Assembly (NCBI GenBank): GCA_041650515.1
Contig: JBAZLA010000001.1
Span: 82,710 to 146,709 of the forward strand
Source: Patescibacteria group bacterium
Lineage (GTDB): Bacteria > Patescibacteriota > Patescibacteriia > JACRDY01
Reading direction: 5' to 3'
DNA: 64,000 nucleotides
In this document: piece after piece, positions 17,716 through 63,305 of the stretch
Layout of the letters: every line of letters starts with the position of its first letter
Position numbering within the stretch: position 1 is the stretch's first letter
Notes under the pieces: model-generated
What the model saw: only the letters and a program-made list of their open reading frames with translations
Told to the model about the DNA's origin: nothing
The model's database searches: none
Program-made: the position numbers and the translations under genes

Positions 17716-17844
17716 TTTGTCATCCTGAGTGTAGCCCCTAACCCATGTGTCAGGGGCGAAGCGAAGGATCAGCCTAATTAACATAATATCATTAGGACAC
17801 CCAGCTGATCCTTCGTCCCGCCACGCGGGACTCAGGATGACAAA
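17716..17844. repeat. Family-B palindromic repeat (tttgtcatcctgagt ... actcaggatgacaaa)
   Basis: Terminal inverted repeats of 15 bp. The internal hairpin ctgatccttcg... is shared with other copies. Confidence 0.75.
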
Positions 17845-17973
17845 TTGAAATGGTCTCACGGAGTTTATCTTAAATGAAGTGAATGACTTAGAATAAAAAG
17901 ACAGAAAAAGTAATAACTCTAGCAAAACTTACCTCAAAATGATATAATATTATAGTAAAAAATAGTTTTAAAT

Positions 17974-47095: not shown

Positions 47096-47107
47096 ATCAG
47101 GCGAATT

Positions 47108-47151
47108 GGGCTTAGGAGTCCCTTGTTCTATCCGTTGAACTATTGGGGCAT
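47108..47151 (-). pseudogene. tRNA-Arg(CCU) 5'-half duplicate (fragment)
   Basis: Copies acceptor-5', D-arm and anticodon arm of the adjacent gene. Flanked by inverted ggcgaat/attcgcc. Confidence 0.7.
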
Positions 47152-47215
47152 ATTCGCCTCTATGAGGAATGAAATCCTTCGCTCCGCTCAGGACGGAGCC
47201 TACTTATTTTCTTAC

Positions 47216-47264
47216 CGCCCCCATGAGGAATCCCACCCTCACGGGTGGTGGCCCGTTAGGGCCA
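47216..47264 (-). repeat. tRNA-Arg(CCG) 3'-end duplicate (cgcccccatgaggaatc) + double mini-hairpin module
   Basis: 17-nt copy of the tRNA 3' end, followed by ccaccc-tcac-gggtgg and tggccc-gtta-gggcca hairpins. Confidence 0.7.
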
Positions 47265-47278
47265 GAACCTTAAATATC

Positions 47279-54286: not shown

Positions 54287-54385
54287 GTCATTGCGAGCCC
54301 GCCGCAGGCGGACGAAGCAATCTCCTGGGTAAACCACCAGATTGCTTCGTCGCTCCCGCCTAAAGGCGGTCGCTCCTCGCAATGA
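54287..54385. repeat. Family-B repeat after paralog B
   Basis: Preceded by a duplicated gene-end fragment atcagaaggaaatatattaaa. Carries hairpin gacgaagcaatctcctgggtaaaccaccagattgcttcgtc. Confidence 0.8.
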
Positions 54386-54507
54386 CGCTAAAAAACTATA
54401 CCCACCTGCCAAAACTGCCAACCAGCAGTTTTTTGATTTGACATTATTTCTAAAAAGGCTAAGCTTAAACATACTCTCAATAGTTCTTTACCAAGTAGGA
54501 GGGGTTT

Positions 54508-54969: not shown

Positions 54970-57789
54970 TTAATTTTTAATTTCTTTAGTCTCGCCCCAA
55001 TTATCTCCCACCTCGATTTTAACCTCAATCGGCACCCGGAGTTTATAAACATTCTCCATCGTTTCTTGAATCAATCTAGCCGCTTTTTTAACCACGCTAT
55101 TTTTGACTTCAAACACTAGTTCGTCGTGCACCTGCAAAACCATTTTAACTTCGTCGGGCTGGAATTCTTGCTTTAACTTCTGATCAACTTGAATCATGGC
55201 TAGTTTGATTAAATCAGCCGCCGTACCCTGGATCGGTGCGTTAATGGCCATCCGCTCGGCGGCGTTGCGCACCTGTGCCAGACCAGAACTGATCTCAGGC
55301 AAATAGCGCACTCGGCCAAAAAGCGTTTCCACATAACCATGCTCACGCGCCGAGGCTAAAGTCTCACGGATAAACTGCTCGACACCGCTAAAAGCCGAAA
55401 AATATTTGGTGATAAACTCCTGAGCTTGCTCGCGTGAAATACCAGTCCGCCAAGCTAGGCCGTAAGCACCCATGCCATAAAGCACACCAAAATTAACTTC
55501 TTTAGCATTGCGGCGCATCTCTTTGGTGACCTCCGAGAGCTTAACTCCATTGATCTCAGCCGCGGTGGCAGTATGAATGTCTTCATTATTTTGAAAAATC
55601 TCCAACATTTTCTTGTCCTCAGCTAAAGAAGCCACAATCCGCAGCTCAATTTGCGAATAGTCAGCCGCCAGGATCTGATAACCTTTTTCGGCCACAAACG
55701 CCCGACGGATCTGTCCACCCAATTCAGTCCGAATGGGAATATTCTGGAGATTAGGTTCAGACGAAGACAGGCGACCCGTTGAGGTAACAGTTTGATTAAA
55801 ACTAGTGTGCACCCGGCCAGTAATCGAATCAACTAGATCGGGCAGAGCTTGAGTATAGGTACTCTGGAGCTTAGCGAGCTCGCGGTGCTGGGAAATATAA
55901 TCAATTATTTCGTGCCGACCACGCAGTTTTTCCAGTTCGGCCGCAGCCGTCGAGATACCGGTCTTGAGTTTTTTTAGTCCACCAGTAGAGATTTTAAGCT
56001 TATCAAACAATACTTCTTTAAGCTGCAACGGCGAATCAATATTAAAGTCGGTACCAGCCAACTGATGAATTTTTTGGTCCGCGATCAGACGCTCTTTTTC
56101 AATCCGAGCATCAAGCTTAGCCAAAAATTTAGGATCAATTTTAACTCCGGTTAATTCCATTTGAACTAAAATCGGAATCAACGGCATCTCAATTTTTTCC
56201 ATCAGGCCCAAAATATTTTTGCGCTCCACTTCATTACTTAATTTTTGGTAAAGCTGATAGGTATAATCAGCATCTTCGCAACAATATTCAGCTACTCGCT
56301 CAACTGGCACTTGGTCTAACGTCAGCTGGTCTTTGCCTTTGGGACCGATTAAACTTTCAATCGGGATCATCTCATGCCCCAGCTCCGTAAAAGCCAAGGT
56401 ATCCAAATCATGCGCCCGGCTACCGGAGTTAAGTAGGTAAGAAGCAATCATGGTGTCGAAATAAACTCCTTGGACATCAATCCCAGCCTGCTGCAGAATC
56501 TCTAAATCATATTTCAAGTTGTGACCGATTTTTTGGACGTTCTTATCTTCTAAAATCTTTTTAATTTCATCGCCGATGGCCGGTAGCCGATGGCCGATGG
56601 CTAAATACCAACCCTCTCCAGCTCGCCAGCTAAACCCAATGCCAACCAACTTAGCTTCCAAGGTATTTAAACCAGTGGTTTCGGTATCAATCGCTATTAC
56701 TGCTTGTTTCTTTAATTCAACCAAAAAACTTTTTAAACTCTTGGCATCATCAACCAAATGATAACCTTTGGGCATTTTAAAATCACTGCGGGCACCAGAC
56801 TCCTGCACGGGCAGGGCACTGCCCTGACCCCTACCGACTGCAAATAAATCTCCCTGCTTTTGTTGCTGTTTACCACTCAGCTCGGGCAATCGATTTAATA
56901 GCGATTTAAACCCCAAATGTTGAAAAAGCATAAACACCGCTTGATTATCAAATCCGCGCACCGCCGCTTCCTGAAGATTAAACTTGATCGGCGCATCAGT
57001 CACAATCGTCGCTAAGTGCTTGGATAATAAGGCATCTTTCTCATGTTCTAACAGCAGTTCTTTGATCCGTGGCTTAATTTCTTCACCTTCTTGTTTTCTT
57101 GCTTTTTTGTTTTCTTGCTTTTTTGTTTTCTTGATTTCTTGATACAGGTTCTCCAACGTACCAAACTGTTGCAGCAATTCCGTAGCAGTTTTTTCACCCA
57201 CACCCTTGACCCCGGGCAGATTATCCGATGGATCACCCCGCAGGCCCTTATAATCAACCATCTGCGCTGGCGCTAAGCCATAACGCTCCTTGACGGCCGC
57301 GGCATCGTAGATAACCGTATCGTTAATGCCTTTTTTGAGCGTAAAAACGGCGGTGTCATCGTTAATCAACTGCAATGTATCCATGTCGCCAGTAACAATA
57401 ATATTTTCTACCTGCCCATCTGTCTGACGACAAATTGTGCCAATCAAATCATCGGCCTCATAATTATCTTCTTTGTAAATCGGAATATTAAACGCCCGAG
57501 CTAACTGCTCTACTACCGGAATCTGGGCATAGAGCTCGTCCGGCTGTTTTTGGCGGGTGGCTTTATACTCGGTATATTCTTGATGACGAAAAGTTTTTTT
57601 GCCTTTGTCTAAAGTCAGGACAACATAATCCGGCTTAAGATCTTTATAAATTTTGAGCAAAATCAAAGCAAAGCCGTAAACAGCATTAACCAACATCCCG
57701 TCTTTACTGGTCAGCGGCGGCAAAGCGTGGAACGCCCGATGGATCAGGGCATTGCCGTCAATAACAATTAGTTTTCCTTTCTTAGACAT
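54970..57789 (-). CDS. polA: DNA polymerase I
   Basis: 5'-3' exonuclease, 3'-5' exonuclease and polymerase (motif A DYSQIELR, motif C QVHDE) domains. A repeat-encoded K/Q/E-rich in-frame insertion sits in the inter-domain linker (57085-57145). Confidence 0.95.
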   Translation of the reverse strand: MSKKGKLIVIDGNALIHRAFHALPPLTSKDGMLVNAVYGFALILLKIYKDLKPDYVVLTLDKGKKTFRHQEYTEYKATRQKQPDELYAQIPVVEQLARAFNIPIYKEDNYEADDLIGTICRQTDGQVENIIVTGDMDTLQLINDDTAVFTLKKGINDTVIYDAAAVKERYGLAPAQMVDYKGLRGDPSDNLPGVKGVGEKTATELLQQFGTLENLYQEIKKTKKQENKKARKQEGEEIKPRIKELLLEHEKDALLSKHLATIVTDAPIKFNLQEAAVRGFDNQAVFMLFQHLGFKSLLNRLPELSGKQQQKQGDLFAVGRGQGSALPVQESGARSDFKMPKGYHLVDDAKSLKSFLVELKKQAVIAIDTETTGLNTLEAKLVGIGFSWRAGEGWYLAIGHRLPAIGDEIKKILEDKNVQKIGHNLKYDLEILQQAGIDVQGVYFDTMIASYLLNSGSRAHDLDTLAFTELGHEMIPIESLIGPKGKDQLTLDQVPVERVAEYCCEDADYTYQLYQKLSNEVERKNILGLMEKIEMPLIPILVQMELTGVKIDPKFLAKLDARIEKERLIADQKIHQLAGTDFNIDSPLQLKEVLFDKLKISTGGLKKLKTGISTAAAELEKLRGRHEIIDYISQHRELAKLQSTYTQALPDLVDSITGRVHTSFNQTVTSTGRLSSSEPNLQNIPIRTELGGQIRRAFVAEKGYQILAADYSQIELRIVASLAEDKKMLEIFQNNEDIHTATAAEINGVKLSEVTKEMRRNAKEVNFGVLYGMGAYGLAWRTGISREQAQEFITKYFSAFSGVEQFIRETLASAREHGYVETLFGRVRYLPEISSGLAQVRNAAERMAINAPIQGTAADLIKLAMIQVDQKLKQEFQPDEVKMVLQVHDELVFEVKNSVVKKAARLIQETMENVYKLRVPIEVKIEVGDNWGETKEIKN

Positions 57790-57941
57790 GGGTATATTTT
57801 ACCATTTCGGACCAAATAAAAAAACCGCCTAACTTCTCTAATTTGTCATCCTAAGCCCTTCGGAATGACAATTAAAAATACTTTATCCCTAACAACATTA
57901 AATTTTTCTAAACAAAAAATCACCCTTCAAGGTGGTTTGGA

Positions 57942-57990
57942 GGCCAGGAGGGGATTTGTCTCCCTACGGGAGATCCCCCATAGGGGGACA
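57942..57990 (-). repeat. tRNA-Cys 3'-end duplicate (ggccaggaggggatttg) + double mini-hairpin module
   Basis: 17-nt identity to 58313-58329, followed by tctccc-tac-gggaga and tccccc-ata-ggggga hairpins. Confidence 0.7.
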
Positions 57991-57997
57991 CCCCTGA

Positions 57998-58279
57998 TTA
58001 TCCAACTGAGTGATTACCTATTCTTAATTTAATAATTTCTTTCTGCTGGCTATTGTGTTTCAACTCATATTCTCTTTTAGCAGCTACCAAATTACTAACA
58101 TAAGCCTCATAATAAACAAGAGCTAACGGCCTTTTGTCTTTTGTTGATTTTACTTCACCCTGATTATGTTTTAAAAAACGGGAACTCAAATCAGAAGAAT
58201 AGCCAATATATAACCACCTCGGATCTCTTATACTCTGTAGGGCATAGACATAAAACATGCCATAAGTATAAAAAACCAA
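57998..58279 (-). CDS. GIY-YIG nuclease domain protein (small, about 86-93 aa)
   Basis: FYVYAL...YIGYSSDL..R...H..G. Likely start is MFYVYAL at 58258. Confidence 0.7.
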   Translation of the reverse strand: MVFYTYGMFYVYALQSIRDPRWLYIGYSSDLSSRFLKHNQGEVKSTKDKRPLALVYYEAYVSNLVAAKREYELKHNSQQKEIIKLRIGNHSVG

Positions 58280-58311
58280 AAGTTAAATATTTCTAAACTT
58301 ATCAAACCAAA

Positions 58312-58383
58312 AAGGCCAGGAGGGGATTTGCACCCCTGCATAGAGGTTTTGCAGACCTCTGCCTTACTACTTGGCTACCTGGC
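58312..58383 (-). tRNA. tRNA-Cys (anticodon GCA)
   Basis: Acceptor ggccagg/cctggcc. Anticodon loop cUGCAaa. T-arm aggggTGCAAATcccct. Confidence 0.8.
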
Positions 58384-58413
58384 CGAAAAAGAAAAAAAAA
58401 TTTAAACAATGAT

Positions 58414-58503
58414 CAGGTTTTGTCTCCCTACGGGAGATCCCCCACAGGGGGACAGACCTCTGCCTGGATTTTATCCGCCTTGGGCGGAACTTGGCTACCT
58501 GGC
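58414..58503 (-). pseudogene. Degenerate tRNA-Cys copy with insertions in D-loop and anticodon loop
   Basis: Shares ggccaggtagccaagt...aggcagaggtctg...caaaacct with the intact gene. There is a 30-nt double mini-hairpin inserted after anticodon position 34 and a hairpin ccgcccaaggcgg in the D-loop. The 3' half is missing. Confidence 0.6.
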
Positions 58504-58600
58504 CGAAATTATTAAATCTCACCCTATAATAACAAAACAACTATCAAAAATCAACCTTACTTTTTTATTATTACTCAAACAATATAGAATAATAAACCCA

Positions 58601-58793
58601 ACTGGGGTTTGGGGCGCCCGCCTAGACTCGACGTCTAGTCGAGGCTGGAATACGGCGCGCAGCCGAGCTCCGACCTTTTTTGATTACGCCAAGGAGCGAG
58701 GCGGGTAAAACGAGCTGGGGATGAACAACGAATCGCGCCTGATGAGTCCCAAAGCTTTTTTGTGTTACTTTTTTAGTTATAAAAAAGTAACAA
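58601..58793 (+). repeat. Family-A structured repeat, copy 2
   Basis: ggggtttggggcg...agtcccaaagc-T6 closing stem. Has ttttttgattacgcc and gcgggtaaaacgag blocks, and the terminal palindrome gttactttttta-gtta-taaaaaagtaac. Confidence 0.6.
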
Positions 58794-58902
58794 CCACTAT
58801 TTTTCCAAAAAAAAGAAGCAGGTGGGCTTCTGTCTAGTGTTGTATCCTCCTTGGAAAACACTAGCTAGAAGCTTCCTGCTTTTGGGGGTATATTGCAACC
58901 CC

Positions 58903-59718
58903 TTAGGCGTCATCCTCCTCCCACGGATACCGGTTGTCCGGTTCGGACTCGGGAACGTGTGGCCCCCGCCGTGGCGGTTCCTCGCATTGCTGCTCGGTCC
59001 GCCCGCGACGCCGGCGGCGGCGGATGATCAGCCAAACGACCAGCAACAGCACCGGGATGCCAATCCGCAGCGCCCAGGTCTTGATCGCCAGATTCCGCTG
59101 GTCCGATTTGGCCTTGGCGTGGCTGGCATTGATCATTTCCATCGCCGCTTGGATGTCAGCCGGCGTGGCTTCGACTGCGGCGTCCTCCTTGAGCCGACGG
59201 TTTTCGGCCAGCGCCGTTTCCAGCGCTGCAGCCTGATCAGCCTGCGCCTGAGCGAGCTGGCCAGCCGGGCTGTCGGGCAACGGATCCGCTTGGTCTTCCA
59301 AGCCCCGCGGATACCAGACCGACGCCGAAGCGCCGGAACTGGCACCCATCAGCTTGTAGCGACCAGAAGCGGACACGTTCCAGGTGGATTCACCGGGAGG
59401 CAATTCGGTCTTTTCTCCAGATCCCTGAAGGGCAAAGACCTTGCCCGAATGGACCGACACCGTCAGCTTGGGTGCCCGCAACGGGTCCATCCAGACGGTC
59501 CGCACGACTTCGTTTTTGGGCAAGCTGTACGGCCCGTTCCAGACGGGGTTTGGGGTTTGTGTTGCTGTCTGCTTCGCCGCGGAGTTGGTCTTGAGCGACT
59601 CGAGCTGCTTTTTGGCCAGCTCGATCAGCTTATCCAGACCAATCTTGGCTTCACCGGTCAGACCGCCGGCCGTCCGTTCGAGAAGCTCAATCTCCTCTTC
59701 GGACAGCGGCTGGCCCGC
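58903..59718 (-). CDS. Hypothetical protein with C-terminal transmembrane segment and poly-Arg tract; continuous in frame with the upstream gene across a TAG
   Basis: Open frame from the codon after TAG(59719-59721) to 58903. The post-stop sequence is coiled-coil-like (EEEIELLERTAGGLTGEAKIGLDKLIELAKKQLESL). The ORF track starts at a TTG (59523). GC-rich. Confidence 0.4.
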   Translation of the reverse strand, partial: AGQPLSEEEIELLERTAGGLTGEAKIGLDKLIELAKKQLESLKTNSAAKQTATQTPNPVWNGPYSLPKNEVVRTVWMDPLRAPKLTVSVHSGKVFALQGSGEKTELPPGESTWNVSASGRYKLMGASSGASASVWYPRGLEDQADPLPDSPAGQLAQAQADQAAALETALAENRRLKEDAAVEATPADIQAAMEMINASHAKAKSDQRNLAIKTWALRIGIPVLLLVVWLIIRRRRRRGRTEQQCEEPPRRGPHVPESEPDNRYPWEEDDA

Positions 59719-60414
59719 CTAGATCTTGGTGCGGATTGCCTCGAGCCGGACAATCTTCAGCGCCTGCTCGTAGTCGGCGTACTCCGCCGCGATCTCGGTT
59801 GCCACCGTCTGGGCCGGATTAACTTGATCAGTTGCCCACCAGAACGGGGTGTTGTGGCCACAGACCCGGACCCAAATCCCCGAAGGAAAAAGGCCGAGAA
59901 TCAGGATCACCAGGACCAACCGGACGCCGGACGCCGCGAGGCGTTTGGGCCACATGCCCGTGGGCAGGCCCCACGCACGGCCGATTGCCCAAAGGCAAAG
60001 TAGCACCAGAAACAGACCGACGATAAAGGTGACGCTGAAGTGGAGCGGGGTGAGGGTCAGCCCGATGATGATAATCAACGGGTAGACCAGGATGGTCGCG
60101 AGAGTCAGGGTCACCGCCCCCCAACCGCGCTTGGCGATTCGCGCCGCCAGATCGGCCAGGTAGAGGGAGATGCCTTTGACCTTGTCCTCGGTAAGACCGA
60201 GGAGTGCGCCCAGCTCCTTGACGACCTTGGTCACCTTTTCCTCGAGAAACAGGGCCAAAACACCGCCGACCAACCAGGCGAGTACTTTCTGCTTGCGGGT
60301 CATCGGCTTGTCGTCTTCGATTCCGAGCCAGGCGAGGAGCATGGTGAAAAACTGAACGTACGGATCTTTCGTTTCGCCGAGGGGATCGGCTGTGGGCTTG
60401 ATGTTCTCGGACAT
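59719..60414 (-). CDS. Polytopic membrane protein (231 aa), GC-rich operon
   Basis: GAAGGAGTACTGCC-ATG. About 5 transmembrane segments. Ends at an in-frame TAG. Confidence 0.5.
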   Translation of the reverse strand: MSENIKPTADPLGETKDPYVQFFTMLLAWLGIEDDKPMTRKQKVLAWLVGGVLALFLEEKVTKVVKELGALLGLTEDKVKGISLYLADLAARIAKRGWGAVTLTLATILVYPLIIIIGLTLTPLHFSVTFIVGLFLVLLCLWAIGRAWGLPTGMWPKRLAASGVRLVLVILILGLFPSGIWVRVCGHNTPFWWATDQVNPAQTVATEIAAEYADYEQALKIVRLEAIRTKI

Positions 60415-60456
60415 GGCAGTACTCCTTCGTTCGTTGCTATCGAGTTGATTCGTTGG

Positions 60457-61110
60457 TTACTTCTTCTTGGGCATTAGCGCGGACATCATGGACGACTGCA
60501 AATGATTGGACATGGCCGTCGCGAAACCCCGCAAGGGAGACCGCTTGATCCAGCCGTGGTCCAAACAATACTGCGTTCGTTGCCAATCGTCCTGCCGCTC
60601 CTTGCCCCAACTTCCCATGAGCAGATACAAATACGGCAAGTCGTCGCGACTCTTGGTCGCAGCGACTACCTGCCGGAAATGATCCTGCGCCCAGGTTGGG
60701 AGATGGGTATACCAGTTGTTGAAAGCCTCATCGGCCGCTTTCAGAGCCGCTTCATCAAGTTTAAAGACTTTGACGGTCTCTTTTTTGGTTCTCAGCTGAG
60801 CACCTTCACGCGCCGGCGGAAGCTCTTTGTCCACGATAACGCTTCCCTCCATGAGGGTATGCGCTTTCTTGGCTTCAACCTCCATCGAGGCGGCTTCGTC
60901 TCCGAAACCGAGTCCGCCAACAGTACCAACCGCTTGCGCTTTTCCGGCGCCAGCGATTGTCTGTTTTATGCCGAATAGGCGATCAAGTACGAAGGCGGCA
61001 ATAGCCGCTACCGTGAAATCGCCAGCATCCGGTACAAAATGACGCAGAAAGCTCTGGACACCAGACGCAGGTTCACTTGCCGCCGAAGCGGTTTTCTTGT
61101 CCTCGGACAT
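60457..61110 (-). CDS. Hypothetical protein (217 aa), first gene of GC-rich operon
   Basis: ACGGAGGATACGAAA-ATG. No recognisable motif. Confidence 0.5.
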   Translation of the reverse strand: MSEDKKTASAASEPASGVQSFLRHFVPDAGDFTVAAIAAFVLDRLFGIKQTIAGAGKAQAVGTVGGLGFGDEAASMEVEAKKAHTLMEGSVIVDKELPPAREGAQLRTKKETVKVFKLDEAALKAADEAFNNWYTHLPTWAQDHFRQVVAATKSRDDLPYLYLLMGSWGKERQDDWQRTQYCLDHGWIKRSPLRGFATAMSNHLQSSMMSALMPKKK

Positions 61111-61590: not shown

Positions 61591-62010
61591 CTAACCGCTA
61601 CCAGTAATAGTTTTAAACACTAAAGTTAAAATAGCATAGCTAGAAAAAACCACTATAATTCCAATAATCGACCAAACCATAATTTCACGACCTTTTTTGA
61701 CTCGCTCCTCATTGCCACCGGAAAAAATCCAATAAAAACCACCCAGCACAAAAGCCAAAAAGGCTAACGCGCCAATTGGAAAGATCATAAAATAAGCAAC
61801 CTGAGCAGCAAAACCGGTTAGCCGCGCCGCCGTGTCATCACTAGCCGAGTCATTATAACTGCGATAGCCCATAGGATCGCCTAAACAGATCGTTCCATCT
61901 GGTGTGCCTTCTGGACATTTCACCTCATCAGCCGCTAGAACCGCTAAACTATTGAATAATAAAATAGCTAAACAAGCTGAAAATAAGATCAATTTGATTT
62001 TGTTTTGCAT
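61591..62010 (-). CDS. TrbC/VirB2-like pilin family protein (candidate)
   Basis: Signal peptide plus two hydrophobic helices (FAAQVAYFMIFPIGALAFLAFVLGGFYW, MVWSIIGIIVVFSSYAIL), arranged as in conjugative pilin. Size 139 aa. Confidence 0.4.
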   Translation of the reverse strand: MQNKIKLILFSACLAILLFNSLAVLAADEVKCPEGTPDGTICLGDPMGYRSYNDSASDDTAARLTGFAAQVAYFMIFPIGALAFLAFVLGGFYWIFSGGNEERVKKGREIMVWSIIGIIVVFSSYAILTLVFKTITGSG

Positions 62011-62353: not shown

Positions 62354-62911
62354 TTAATAAATCTCCACTCTCAACCGACGAACACCAAACGCTTTAGCCG
62401 CCTCACGGCTCTTCATCCAGACATCAACTCGATAATCATAGCGGGCATTCATCCGGTCTTGGACAGTAAAAACTTGGTCGCCGAAGTAATCCGGCATTTT
62501 GATCTCGGTGCCAAAGGGTAAAAAATTAGCCGCCACCACGTCCTCTTGATCATGGAGACAAACGTTAAAACCATTGGCGGTTCGACACGGATCATCATCA
62601 CACTGATCAACCGTGCTGGAATAAGCCGTGACCGTCACCCAAATCACCCGTTTAGGCTTAGGCGCGGCTTCTGGCAGAGAATTAACGAACTCTTCTGGCT
62701 CAGCCGCTAAGGCGGGAGTAAATAAACTTAGCTCCAAAACCGGGGTATCAGCATCAATCGCACCGGTCTGCCGAAGCGAGTGGGCGAGGCTCACTTGCGG
62801 AAAGGCAAACTCAAAGATAACTATCGCCAAAACCCCAATCTCCAAATGCTTATTTTGAGCTATTTTTAGGTATTTTTTGGCTGTTTTAACAAAACGTCTC
62901 AGGTATTCCAT
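62354..62911 (-). CDS. 3D-domain protein (RlpA/MltA-like double-psi beta-barrel)
   Basis: VTVTAYSS..DQCDDDPC.TANG ... FGT.I..P ... VQDRMNARY...VDVWM motifs. N-terminal transmembrane segment. Confidence 0.55.
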   Translation of the reverse strand: MEYLRRFVKTAKKYLKIAQNKHLEIGVLAIVIFEFAFPQVSLAHSLRQTGAIDADTPVLELSLFTPALAAEPEEFVNSLPEAAPKPKRVIWVTVTAYSSTVDQCDDDPCRTANGFNVCLHDQEDVVAANFLPFGTEIKMPDYFGDQVFTVQDRMNARYDYRVDVWMKSREAAKAFGVRRLRVEIY

Positions 62912-63118
62912 AATTTTATTTAAAAACCCCTAATATACCTTAGGGATTTTCTGATCCGCTATCTTAGCAGAACCAGCCAAAATTGTCAAGGGTAACAAAA
63001 CAACCGCGGCTTTTTCTAGCCACGGCTGCTAATTAGTTTTTGATAATAGTTTTAACCCTTTTTAGGCATCAATTCACCCAACTTTACCTTGATTATCCCT
63101 TAATAACACCCGACTGAC

Positions 63119-63168
63119 TGGAGCGGGTAATGGGAATCTCCCCCTACGGGGGATCACCCGTTAGGGTG
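63119..63168 (-). repeat. tRNA-Gly 3'-end duplicate (tggagcgggtaatgggaatc) + double mini-hairpin module
   Basis: 19/20 identity to 63231-63250, followed by tccccc-tac-ggggga and tcaccc-gtta-gggtga hairpins. Confidence 0.7.
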
Positions 63169-63230
63169 AGAACCCACCTTATCAGTTTACCGGCCCGCAT
63201 CTAAGAACTGGATAATTAGATCAATTTAGC

Positions 63231-63305
63231 TGGAGCGGGTAACGGGAATCGAACCCGTATTTTCAGTTTGGAAAACTGATGCACTAGCCGTTGTGCTATA
63301 CCCGC
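63231..63305 (-). tRNA. tRNA-Gly (anticodon UCC), CCA encoded
   Basis: Acceptor gcgggta/tacccgc. Anticodon loop uUUCCaa. T-arm acgggTTCGATTcccgt. Confidence 0.85.

Follow-up and report, generated by a model that had tools for sequence, protein, structure and literature searches.

How did a tRNA-Cys gene come to lie between the two halves of another, in company with the gene of a very small nuclease? The question is raised by a locus beside polA in a 64,000-nt stretch of the genome of an ultra-small bacterium of the Patescibacteria (contig JBAZLA010000001.1 of assembly GCA_041650515.1, positions 82,710 to 146,709; hereafter the window). Two partial tRNA-Cys copies at this locus, here called copy C and copy A, make up one complete older tRNA-Cys gene that is short of only 5 nt (CTATG), and between them lie an intact tRNA-Cys, copy B, and an open reading frame (ORF) for a GIY-YIG protein. 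We consider it reasonably probable that a small selfish cassette, consisting of an 86-aa Slx1-like GIY-YIG gene together with its own intact tRNA-Cys, has colonised a resident tRNA-Cys gene at this locus.

A tRNA-Cys gene split around an intact copy

The unit lies entirely on the minus strand, and its parts are given here in 5' to 3' order on that strand.

58508..58554, minus strand: two overlapping sigma-70-like promoter matches (consensus matches only), directly upstream of the 5' relic
58415..58504, minus strand: 5' relic of the resident tRNA-Cys (copy C), positions 1-42, with exact fragments matching tRNA positions 1-16 and 21-33
58474..58488, minus strand: single hairpin TCCGCC-CAA-GGCGGA in place of the relic D-loop
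58423..58452, minus strand: double hairpin TCCCCC-TGT-GGGGGA / TCTCCC-GTA-GGGAGA in the relic anticodon loop, between G34 and C35 (TG^CAAA)
58385..58414, minus strand: A/T-rich 30-nt spacer from the 5' relic to the intact tRNA, marking where the inserted cassette starts on its left; alignable with the counterpart spacer of locus L144
58313..58384, minus strand: intact tRNA-Cys(GCA) (copy B), the working copy inside the split gene; called by ARAGORN and by Rfam (RF00005, 64.8 bits, E 5e-13), with a cloverleaf fold
57998..58258, minus strand: stand-alone GIY-YIG nuclease gene, 86 aa, UPF0213/Slx1-like, 54 nt downstream of the intact tRNA
57941..57996, minus strand: 3' relic of the resident tRNA-Cys (copy A), positions 48-72
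57959..57988, minus strand: second double hairpin, in the relic T-loop at TG^CAAA, 29/30 identical to the first
57921..57934, minus strand: intrinsic-terminator-like hairpin CACCTTGAAGGGTG followed by a T run, which ends the unit ahead of polA

The older gene is interrupted four times: in the D-loop by a single hairpin, in the anticodon loop (after G34) and the T-loop by double hairpins, and in the variable region by about 410 bp holding the intact tRNA and the GIY-YIG ORF. Copy C reads GGCCAGGTAGCCAAGT (58489-58504), the D-loop hairpin TCCGCCCAAGGCGGA (58474-58488) with TAAAATCCA, then GGCAGAGGTCTG (58453-58464), the 30-nt double hairpin TCCCCCTGTGGGGGA TCTCCCGTAGGGAGA and finally CAAAACCT (58415-58422). 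Copy A, which begins one nucleotide beyond the stop codon of the GIY-YIG ORF (57998-58000), reads CAGGGGTG (57989-57996), the double hairpin and CAAATCCCCTCCTGGCCT. Since CAGGGGTG stands ahead of the hairpin, copy A comprises a complete T-arm and the 3' strand of the acceptor, 26 nt of tRNA sequence interrupted in the T-loop by the double hairpin, and not only 17-18 nt of the tRNA 3' end. Within it, 18 nt (57941-57958) exactly repeat the 3' end of the intact tRNA (58313-58330), and the 30-nt double hairpin occurs twice in the unit (57959-57988 and 58423-58452; 29/30 identical); zero shuffles matched either repeat.

Both double hairpins are placed at TG^CAAA. The T-loop of the intact tRNA-Cys is UGCAAAU in the Rfam alignment, and so repeats the TGCAAA of its own anticodon loop. 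U or pseudouridine at position 55 is near-universal in tRNA T-loops; in the intact tRNA-Cys (58313-58384) a G aligns at this position of the Rfam model, and its T-loop is non-canonical. The T-loops of the tRNA-Cys at two related loci (L002 and L007) are UGCAAUU.

The promoter-like sites, again as consensus matches only, are TTGATT-17-TATTAT with a TG extension and TTGTTA-16-AATAAT; they are presumed to have been the promoter of the old tRNA-Cys gene and now to be that of the whole unit. With these sites on one side and a single terminator on the other, the whole unit is enclosed, and equivalent terminators also come after the unit in L001, L002, L003 and L006. Misassembly was ruled out because an independently assembled Logan contig from another sequencing run (L140, SRR8542065) is 100% identical over part of the tRNA, the GIY-YIG gene, the relic and polA.

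An earlier note on this DNA, made from its letters alone, had anticipated much of this layout. The intact tRNA-Cys(GCA) that it put at 58312-58383 is present, shifted by 1 nt, and the GIY-YIG gene that it gave as 57998-58279 is real (PF01541), although its likely start is ATG 58258 and not TTG 58279. That gene is indeed the sole ORF of the roughly 370 bp between the repeats. The note's 17-nt duplicate of the tRNA 3' end at 57942 also exists, but is 18 nt long (57941-57958) and part of the 26-nt arm. A second tRNA-Cys-like copy with a palindromic D-loop insert was found as described (58415-58504, insert 58474-58488), and the 30-nt double hairpin said to follow position 34 directly sits exactly between G34 and C35. 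Two of its readings had to be given up: the 3' half of the disrupted tRNA-Cys, which it took to be missing, is copy A, beyond the cassette, and the nuclease gene is not simply bracketed by direct repeats of a tRNA 3' end; instead, one resident tRNA-Cys is split around a tRNA and a nuclease gene.

The note had also proposed folding both Cys sequences; the intact copy is called by ARAGORN and Rfam, and copy C is called as a tRNA by neither. With no such call, and with a complete tRNA lying inside it, copy C was rejected as a functional intron-containing or split tRNA. In an Rfam scan of 56500-60500 in E-value mode, the intact tRNA was the sole match, and the interruption held no group I intron or other RNA family. 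A group I intron was also rejected on structural grounds, the interruption being a whole tRNA plus an ORF and not a ribozyme between contiguous exons.

Related loci, the nuclease and the hairpins

Homologues of the window protein come nearly all from Patescibacteria. In the first contexts compared, the gene again lay at tRNA-Cys with tRNA fragments and double hairpins, in varied order, and we surveyed 83 loci with 90 related GIY-YIG genes. A same-strand tRNA lies within 30 nt of 47 of the 90 genes (41 downstream, 6 upstream) and within 150 nt of 56; if tRNA genes are spaced at roughly one per 20 kb, as we estimate, <1% would be adjacent by chance. The adjacent tRNAs are Cys, Glu, Ser, Trp, Ala, Val, Leu, Tyr and Gly. 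Typically, a 5' fragment of the same tRNA (positions 1 to ~35) precedes the ORF, and a 3' fragment often follows it. Among the 20 loci without a detectable tRNA, three genes adjoin transfer-messenger RNA (tmRNA) and one lies inside a 16S rRNA gene (L040); in a further clade, the ORF stands between inverted repeats of the type CCCCCACAC/GTGTGGGGG. In a neighbour-joining tree, the proteins cluster according to adjacent RNA (Cys, Glu, Ser, Trp, Ala/Val, tmRNA), and within the clade of the window protein itself the order flips between tRNA then ORF and ORF then tRNA. Several metagenome-assembled genomes carry more than one copy at different RNA genes (L033/L034, L044/L056, L061/L079). The mobile cassette that the earlier note thought possible is supported to the extent that a cassette-like unit with a nuclease gene recurs at tRNA genes in many Patescibacteria.

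At the tmRNA loci (L037 962-1572, L061 2501-3110, L053 31-802), the family ORF lies within a 21-nt inverted repeat that overlaps the tmRNA 5' end, and the family member inside the 16S rRNA gene (L040 2023-3815) lies between 14-nt inverted repeats. Tandem arrays also occur: two successive units of GTCTG, double hairpin and 3' half after tRNA-Cys (L081 2826-2995), a duplicated hairpin-bearing 5' half of tRNA-Glu (L022 1660-2130), and two tandem nuclease genes each in L057 (1820-2500) and L018 (2500-3080). These arrays suggest repeated rounds of insertion. A phage-borne cassette was rejected, as IMG/VR gave only one weak relative (40% identity).

In some loci, the displaced halves belong to a different tRNA-Cys allele from the central functional one. 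The flanking relic acceptor strands of L047, GGCCGGA/TCCGGCC, pair 7/7 with each other, and its central intact tRNA has GACCCGT/ACGGGTC. In L026, relic strands GGTCGCG/CGCGACC (7/7 paired) surround a central tRNA with GGTCCGA/TCGGACC, and in L025 strands GGTCGCA/CGCGACC (6/7) surround the same central pair. L047 and L025/L026 represent two independent lineages, and in both the two flanking halves pair mutually but fail to pair with the central tRNA. An old half joined to a new one would not fold; therefore, the central tRNA must have come in whole, along with the ORF, and within the old gene's anticodon loop. The 3' relic also differs from the central tRNA in L007 and L032.

Orthologous tRNA-Cys/polA neighbourhoods were found via PolA homologues. 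L142, one of the two closest polA-linked relatives (PolA 71%), has a split relic of the window-type allele (GGCCAGG...CAAAACCTCTATGCAGGGGTG...CCCCTCCTGGCCT) with a different tRNA-Cys inside it and no nuclease gene. L144 (PolA 71%) shares the architecture of the window except that only 25 nt stand in place of the nuclease gene: its 5' relic has the D-arm hairpin and an insert in the anticodon loop, and beyond a spacer and an intact tRNA comes a 3' relic whose T-loop contains that same insert. For L144, loss of the nuclease gene appears the more parsimonious reading. L148 (PolA 63%) carries a 5' relic with D-arm hairpin followed by an intact tRNA, and L147 (PolA 64%) an intact tRNA followed by a 3' relic of another allele with a T-loop insert. 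At L146 (PolA 67%), tRNA-Cys is clean and stands alone; relic, hairpin and nuclease gene are all absent. The earlier note had asked whether distant relatives would share an intact, single tRNA-Cys; instead, one naive locus (L146), four relic-only loci (L142, L144, L147, L148) and three nuclease-containing loci (the window, L002, L007) were found linked to polA. Since these states coexist, the tRNA-Cys/polA locus is dynamic.

Two further tRNA-Cys loci without a nuclease gene are interrupted in other ways. In L101 (91-424), the leader and 5' half are duplicated, with ~180 nt of unrelated sequence before the duplicated leader of the intact gene, and L098 (2184-2370) has a 3' relic with a T-loop insert of ~100 nt.

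The GIY-YIG ORF matches Pfam PF01541 at 48.4 bits (cut-off 22.6; E 1.1e-12) over residues 1-72. Its likely start, ATG 58258, agrees with a 100%-identical database protein (P0001) and with all homologues, unlike TTG 58279. Across 35 homologues, the window protein among them, Y5, Y17, G19, R27 and E51 do not vary, and Y3 and H31 are nearly invariant. In a profile search of the PDB, the best match was UPF0213 (1ZG2, E 3.9e-14; also 1YWL), followed by SLX1 (E 5e-4) and, more weakly, I-TevI (E 3.6e-3). The AlphaFold model of the 86-aa protein (predicted local distance difference test, pLDDT, 90) matched best UPF0213, At-HIGLE and the Slx1 catalytic domain (template modelling score, TM, 0.65-0.70; root-mean-square deviation, rmsd, 1.5-2.7 Å), with UvrC far behind (E 3.8). 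As modelled, the protein is a bare catalytic domain of Slx1/UPF0213-like lineage and is predicted to be structure-specific; neither Pfam nor the AlphaFold model revealed a DNA-binding module or accessory domain. This assignment agrees with the published classification of stand-alone prokaryotic GIY-YIG proteins (PMC1564403). With the catalytic Tyr, Arg and Glu conserved and the model confident, the product of the predicted nuclease gene looks intact; a degenerate ORF would, by the earlier note, have counted against its reading. The window protein has no match in NCBIfam; an anti-phage defence system was considered and rejected, with no NCBIfam match and no meaningful PADLOC match.

The double hairpins, or doublets, share the consensus TCNNNC-NNN-GNNNGA twice, in abutting units of 15+15 nt. 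Their triloops are often TNC and GNA and are frequently mutual reverse complements, which makes some doublets near-perfect 30-bp palindromes centred between GA and TC. For the analysis of covariation, inserts were defined solely by their tRNA flanks (TCTG...CAAAA, GGTTTT...CATCC), avoiding circularity. In the 16 distinct 30-mers that lie near nuclease genes, bases are paired in 99% of cells, and compensatory changes are seen at 9 of 12 pairs. The covariation score of 0.655 compares with 0.186 for shuffled data (reached by 0/500) and falls away once partner columns are shifted. Each stem of a doublet varies without regard to the other, and therefore intrastrand pairing is what is preserved. The covarying double hairpins are a conserved junction element, which the earlier note had not seen in them. 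Only 7 of 540 pairs are non-Watson-Crick, too few for a count of G-T against A-C mismatches to decide between the RNA and the DNA level. Both DNA strands of the window's relic anticodon arm have a predicted branched fold, with modest z-scores, and the T-loop relic arms fold differently.

Doublet density is 0.51 per kb within 300 nt of the nuclease genes versus 0.018 per kb elsewhere in the same loci; control matches in the polA loci are mostly chance, in GC-rich contigs. The window contains exactly four doublets, all in tRNA relics: two of tRNA-Cys, one of tRNA-Gly (63139-63169) and one of tRNA-Arg(CCG) (47233-47264). The TCCGCC...GGCGGA hairpin of the D-loop recurs at the same relic position in L002, L010, L142 and L144, and a variant in L148 ends in GGCGGG.

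The tRNA loci of the window genome are generally littered with half-genes. A condensed tRNA-Gly-like relic at 63110-63190 (minus strand), just downstream of tRNA-Gly(TCC) (63231-63305) and with no nuclease gene nearby, reads GCGGGCC...GGTGGGTTC, then the double hairpin TCACCCTAACGGGTGA TCCCCCGTAGGGGGA in the T-loop, then GATTCCCATTACCCGCTCCA. Three relics lie at 47100-47275 (minus strand) between tRNA-Arg(CCG) and tRNA-Arg(CCT): a tRNA-Arg(CCG) T-arm and acceptor with a T-loop double hairpin (47233-47264), a more degenerate copy, and a 35-nt 5' piece of tRNA-Arg(CCT) (47108-47142) that follows a different acceptor-strand sequence.

Explanations of the split gene

How a selfish cassette would come to replace a tRNA gene we infer as follows. 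The nuclease would break the DNA of the cognate tRNA gene at a loop or stem-loop, the recurring junction in the window clade being TG^CAAA. The break would be repaired from a cassette-bearing copy, with the tRNA-derived flanks serving as homology arms, and nuclease gene, replacement tRNA and hairpins would be copied in jointly. Disruption of an essential single-copy gene would be rendered harmless by the carried tRNA. The hairpins may be selected as folded structures, which would destroy the cleavage sites and interrupt the repeat homology that would otherwise delete the cassette (the T-loop doublet of the window divides the 26-nt repeat into 8 + 18 nt); alternatively, they may be the branched-DNA substrate of the nuclease. 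The earlier note had suggested a history of insertion and repair of the homing-endonuclease type. An insertion into tRNA-Cys is indeed recorded here, but the protein is a bare 86-aa Slx1/UPF0213 domain and not a classical homing endonuclease.

More generally, we propose tentatively, at somewhat short of even confidence, that Patescibacteria may host minimal selfish elements, made up of a ~85-aa Slx1-like GIY-YIG nuclease and structure-conserved doublets, that colonise tRNA, tmRNA and rRNA genes. At tRNA genes, these would split the resident and substitute a carried copy, amounting to horizontal tRNA-gene replacement, and targeting would be by the DNA structure of RNA-gene stem-loops and not by a sequence-reading domain.

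Several observations weigh against colonisation by a selfish cassette. The protein has no DNA-binding domain to account for sequence-specific homing, and the intact tRNA of the cassette keeps the TGCAAA loops of the relic, which leaves immunity to self-cleavage unexplained. The relic segments of the window are identical to the intact tRNA, and therefore recent duplication or gene conversion is indistinguishable here from the arrival of a foreign cassette. The D-arm hairpin and the 5' relic that bears it are conserved in L142, L144 and L148, at PolA identities of only 63-71%. Such conservation would be strange in neutral debris and gives a hint of selection or of repeated co-transfer. In L142 and L144, the relic architecture persists without a nuclease gene. 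Finally, no empty-site allele at strain level (>90%) was found: PolA of the nearest relatives is 71% identical, and the metagenome scan did not recover the species of the window.

Some of the same evidence could be read as a minimal form of structure-directed transposition, the main rival, which we regard as unlikely. Here, the doublets would be the active sites, extruding as cruciforms or three-way junctions; an Slx1-like nuclease would resolve these and free or open the segment, which would re-enter at another tRNA loop, either by recombination at a doublet-bearing arm (a circle plus an att-like site) or by capture at a break. The structural neighbours Slx1 and At-HIGLE are branched-DNA nucleases, unlike I-TevI and UvrC, and doublets stand at both cassette junctions, each within a complete local arm whose two strands, in the window, are predicted to fold branched. 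Many doublets are near-perfect palindromes with paired TNC/GNA triloops, near-identical doublets occupy different loops of one relic (the window, L144), and in other clades the ORF lies within inverted repeats, like terminal repeats. Such transposition would also explain the duplicated arm and doublet in L002, L007 and L081, where GTCTG-hairpin-CAAAAC is found on both sides. On the other hand, cruciform extrusion would have to start from short stems (5-6 bp), neither circular nor excised forms were observed, and the junction position differs among loci (anticodon loop, T-loop, T-stem, variable region). Moreover, we know of no GIY-YIG nuclease that joins DNA strands. A further reading takes the split outer tRNA for a conserved RNA scaffold maintained by the host, with the nuclease gene as an optional passenger; the scaffold could be a leader or a platform for processing, recognised by RNase P/Z, or could stabilise the embedded tRNA and mRNA. 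The 5' relic with D-arm hairpin stands upstream of tRNA-Cys in the window, L002, L010, L142, L144 and L148 despite deep divergence, relics persist where the nuclease gene is absent, the outer acceptor strands remain complementary, and the whole unit lies between one promoter-like site and one terminator. We nonetheless find this explanation quite improbable: the tRNA-Cys of L146 is plain and single, many loci (e.g. L048, L069 and upstream in L081) have degenerate relics or none, no Rfam family matches, and many different tRNAs, tmRNA and rRNA are affected likewise. The foreign-allele relic halves of L047 and L026 indicate displacement and not design.

An ordinary history, in which the GIY-YIG gene is incidental to a tandem tRNA-Cys duplication with decay or to the attachment (att) repeats of an integrase island, is very improbable and largely refuted by the comparative data. 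An 18-nt direct repeat of a tRNA 3' end is a typical trace of integrase-mediated insertion, and a high-GC segment with orphan ORFs adjoins the locus. However, the ~370 bp bounded by the repeats hold only the nuclease gene and no integrase, on which ground the integrase island was rejected; the high-GC ORFs have no counterpart at other cassettes, and the association of the family with RNA genes, relics and doublets recurs in dozens of unrelated contigs.

If colonisation by a tRNA-carrying selfish cassette is the true account, it represents a compact way for selfish DNA to invade an essential single-copy non-coding gene in a minimal genome, by bringing a spare. It would explain why small 'GIY-YIG family protein' genes are so often found at tRNA genes in Patescibacteria, as well as the half-genes that litter tRNA loci and the swapping of tRNA alleles between lineages. 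It would also offer a concrete candidate substrate for bacterial UPF0213/Slx1-like proteins, which have long been unassigned, namely tRNA-gene stem-loops or doublet junctions. In practice, relics interrupted by hairpins can mislead the annotation of tRNAs and cause assemblies to break where tRNA genes lie. The unusual features of the unit should be of interest to specialists in mobile DNA and in the genomics of the candidate phyla radiation (CPR).

Neighbouring features and known systems

Directly upstream of the tRNA-Cys unit, a 2.2-kb segment (58900-61110) has 56-63% GC in a ~42% GC genome and contains three minus-strand ORFs (206, 231 and 217 aa) with no Pfam match above threshold and no homologue in the compared loci. 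These ORFs (58.9-61.1 kb) were rejected as part of the cassette, as they have no homologues at other cassettes and only two genes recur upstream there. One (61591-62010) encodes a small protein like a type IV secretion system pilin and is also found upstream of the cassette in L003-L005; the other (62354-62911) encodes a 185-aa protein (w185) whose homologue directly precedes the tRNA-Cys unit in L002 and L010 and lies at a greater distance upstream of tRNA-Cys in L098. Given the placement of the 185-aa homologues next to the unit, the pilin gene and the high-GC block appear to have been inserted between neighbours that are conserved.

Nearer to the unit, 58594-58720 is a GC-rich intergenic stretch containing a palindrome (ggggcgcccgcctagactcgacgtctagtcgaggc...) and without an Rfam match, and a mir-208 match at 58814-58885 is sub-threshold, a chance hit that overlaps a terminator-like hairpin. 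Longer palindromic repeats at 17750-17850, 54290-54400 and 57840-57880, of the types TTGTCATCCTGAG...CTCAGGATGACAA and GTCATTGCGAGG...CTCGCAATGAC, form a family resembling repetitive extragenic palindromes (REP) or miniature inverted-repeat transposable elements and are separate from the doublets.

The nearest precedent for the locus is provided by free-standing GIY-YIG homing genes ('intronless homing'), such as SegB in a tRNA gene cluster of phage T4 (PMC2330249). In both cases, a GIY-YIG gene lies among or beside tRNA genes with no intron or intein, and spread is presumed to occur by double-strand-break repair that co-converts the flanks; the window gene also resembles free-standing homing genes in lying within or beside its presumed target gene. 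SegB-type proteins have DNA-binding modules in addition to the catalytic domain, whereas the window protein is a bare 86-aa domain whose cleavage activity is putative. Furthermore, the target gene in the window is split and replaced by a carried copy, with covarying doublets marking the junctions.

Genomic islands and prophages that integrate at tRNA genes share with the window locus the insertion into a tRNA gene (at anticodon-loop or T-loop sublocations), the direct repeat of the 3' end and the restoration of function by element-borne sequence. Some integrative elements that target tRNA genes carry a copy of the displaced tRNA segment. The window cassette has no integrase, is <0.5 kb long and brings a complete tRNA instead of just a 3' portion, and its locus, unlike those of the islands, keeps 5' and 3' relics with hairpins in their loops.

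The rRNA genes of CPR bacteria contain non-intron insertion sequences in which small GIY-YIG ORFs have been described (Tsurumaki et al. 2024, PMC11270868). These insertions occur in the same phylum, carry a similar small GIY-YIG ORF and lie at stem-loops of a structured RNA gene without intron features. The window element differs in its location at a tRNA gene instead of an rRNA gene, although one member of its family (L040) lies within 16S rRNA. As rRNA tolerates fragmentation and tRNA does not, a replacement copy would be carried in the latter case. A survey of tRNA introns in Patescibacteria (PMC13011429) reports tRNA genes that contain group I introns, with no mention of GIY-YIG, tRNA-Cys, hairpins or pseudogenes. 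Archaeal multi-intron, split and permuted tRNA genes bear a superficial likeness in that a tRNA gene is interrupted at several loops, including non-canonical ones; the window host is a bacterium (by PolA), its interruptions include a complete tRNA and a protein gene, and there is no sign of splicing of the outer gene.

The hairpins invite comparison with REP elements and their associated tyrosine transposases (RAYT), with the palindrome-associated transposable elements of IS200/IS605 and with integron attC sites, all of which involve short structure-conserved palindromes marking where elements end or insert. The window cassette, to which the screen was confined, encodes neither an HUH/Y1 transposase nor an integron integrase, and its hairpins are distinct in being abutting 15+15-nt doublets, all four of which in the window lie in tRNA-relic loops. 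The nuclease itself resembles Slx1 and UPF0213 (YhbQ-like; PDB 1ZG2, 1YWL, 7CQ3, 7WME) in both sequence (1ZG2, E 4e-14) and modelled fold (Slx1 domain, TM 0.70, rmsd 1.5 Å), and differs from Slx1 in having neither the RING/zinc-finger domain nor the Slx4 partner. The full-text literature searched did not mention UPF0213 proteins in an RNA-gene context with relics. Nor did it describe a GIY-YIG/tRNA cassette, a replacement tRNA or the doublets, which is weak evidence of novelty as that literature omits most subscription journals. Selfish nuclease-gene cassettes at RNA genes are known; what is unusual here is the combination of a carried replacement tRNA, a minimal Slx1-like nuclease and covarying doublets in the loops of the displaced gene.

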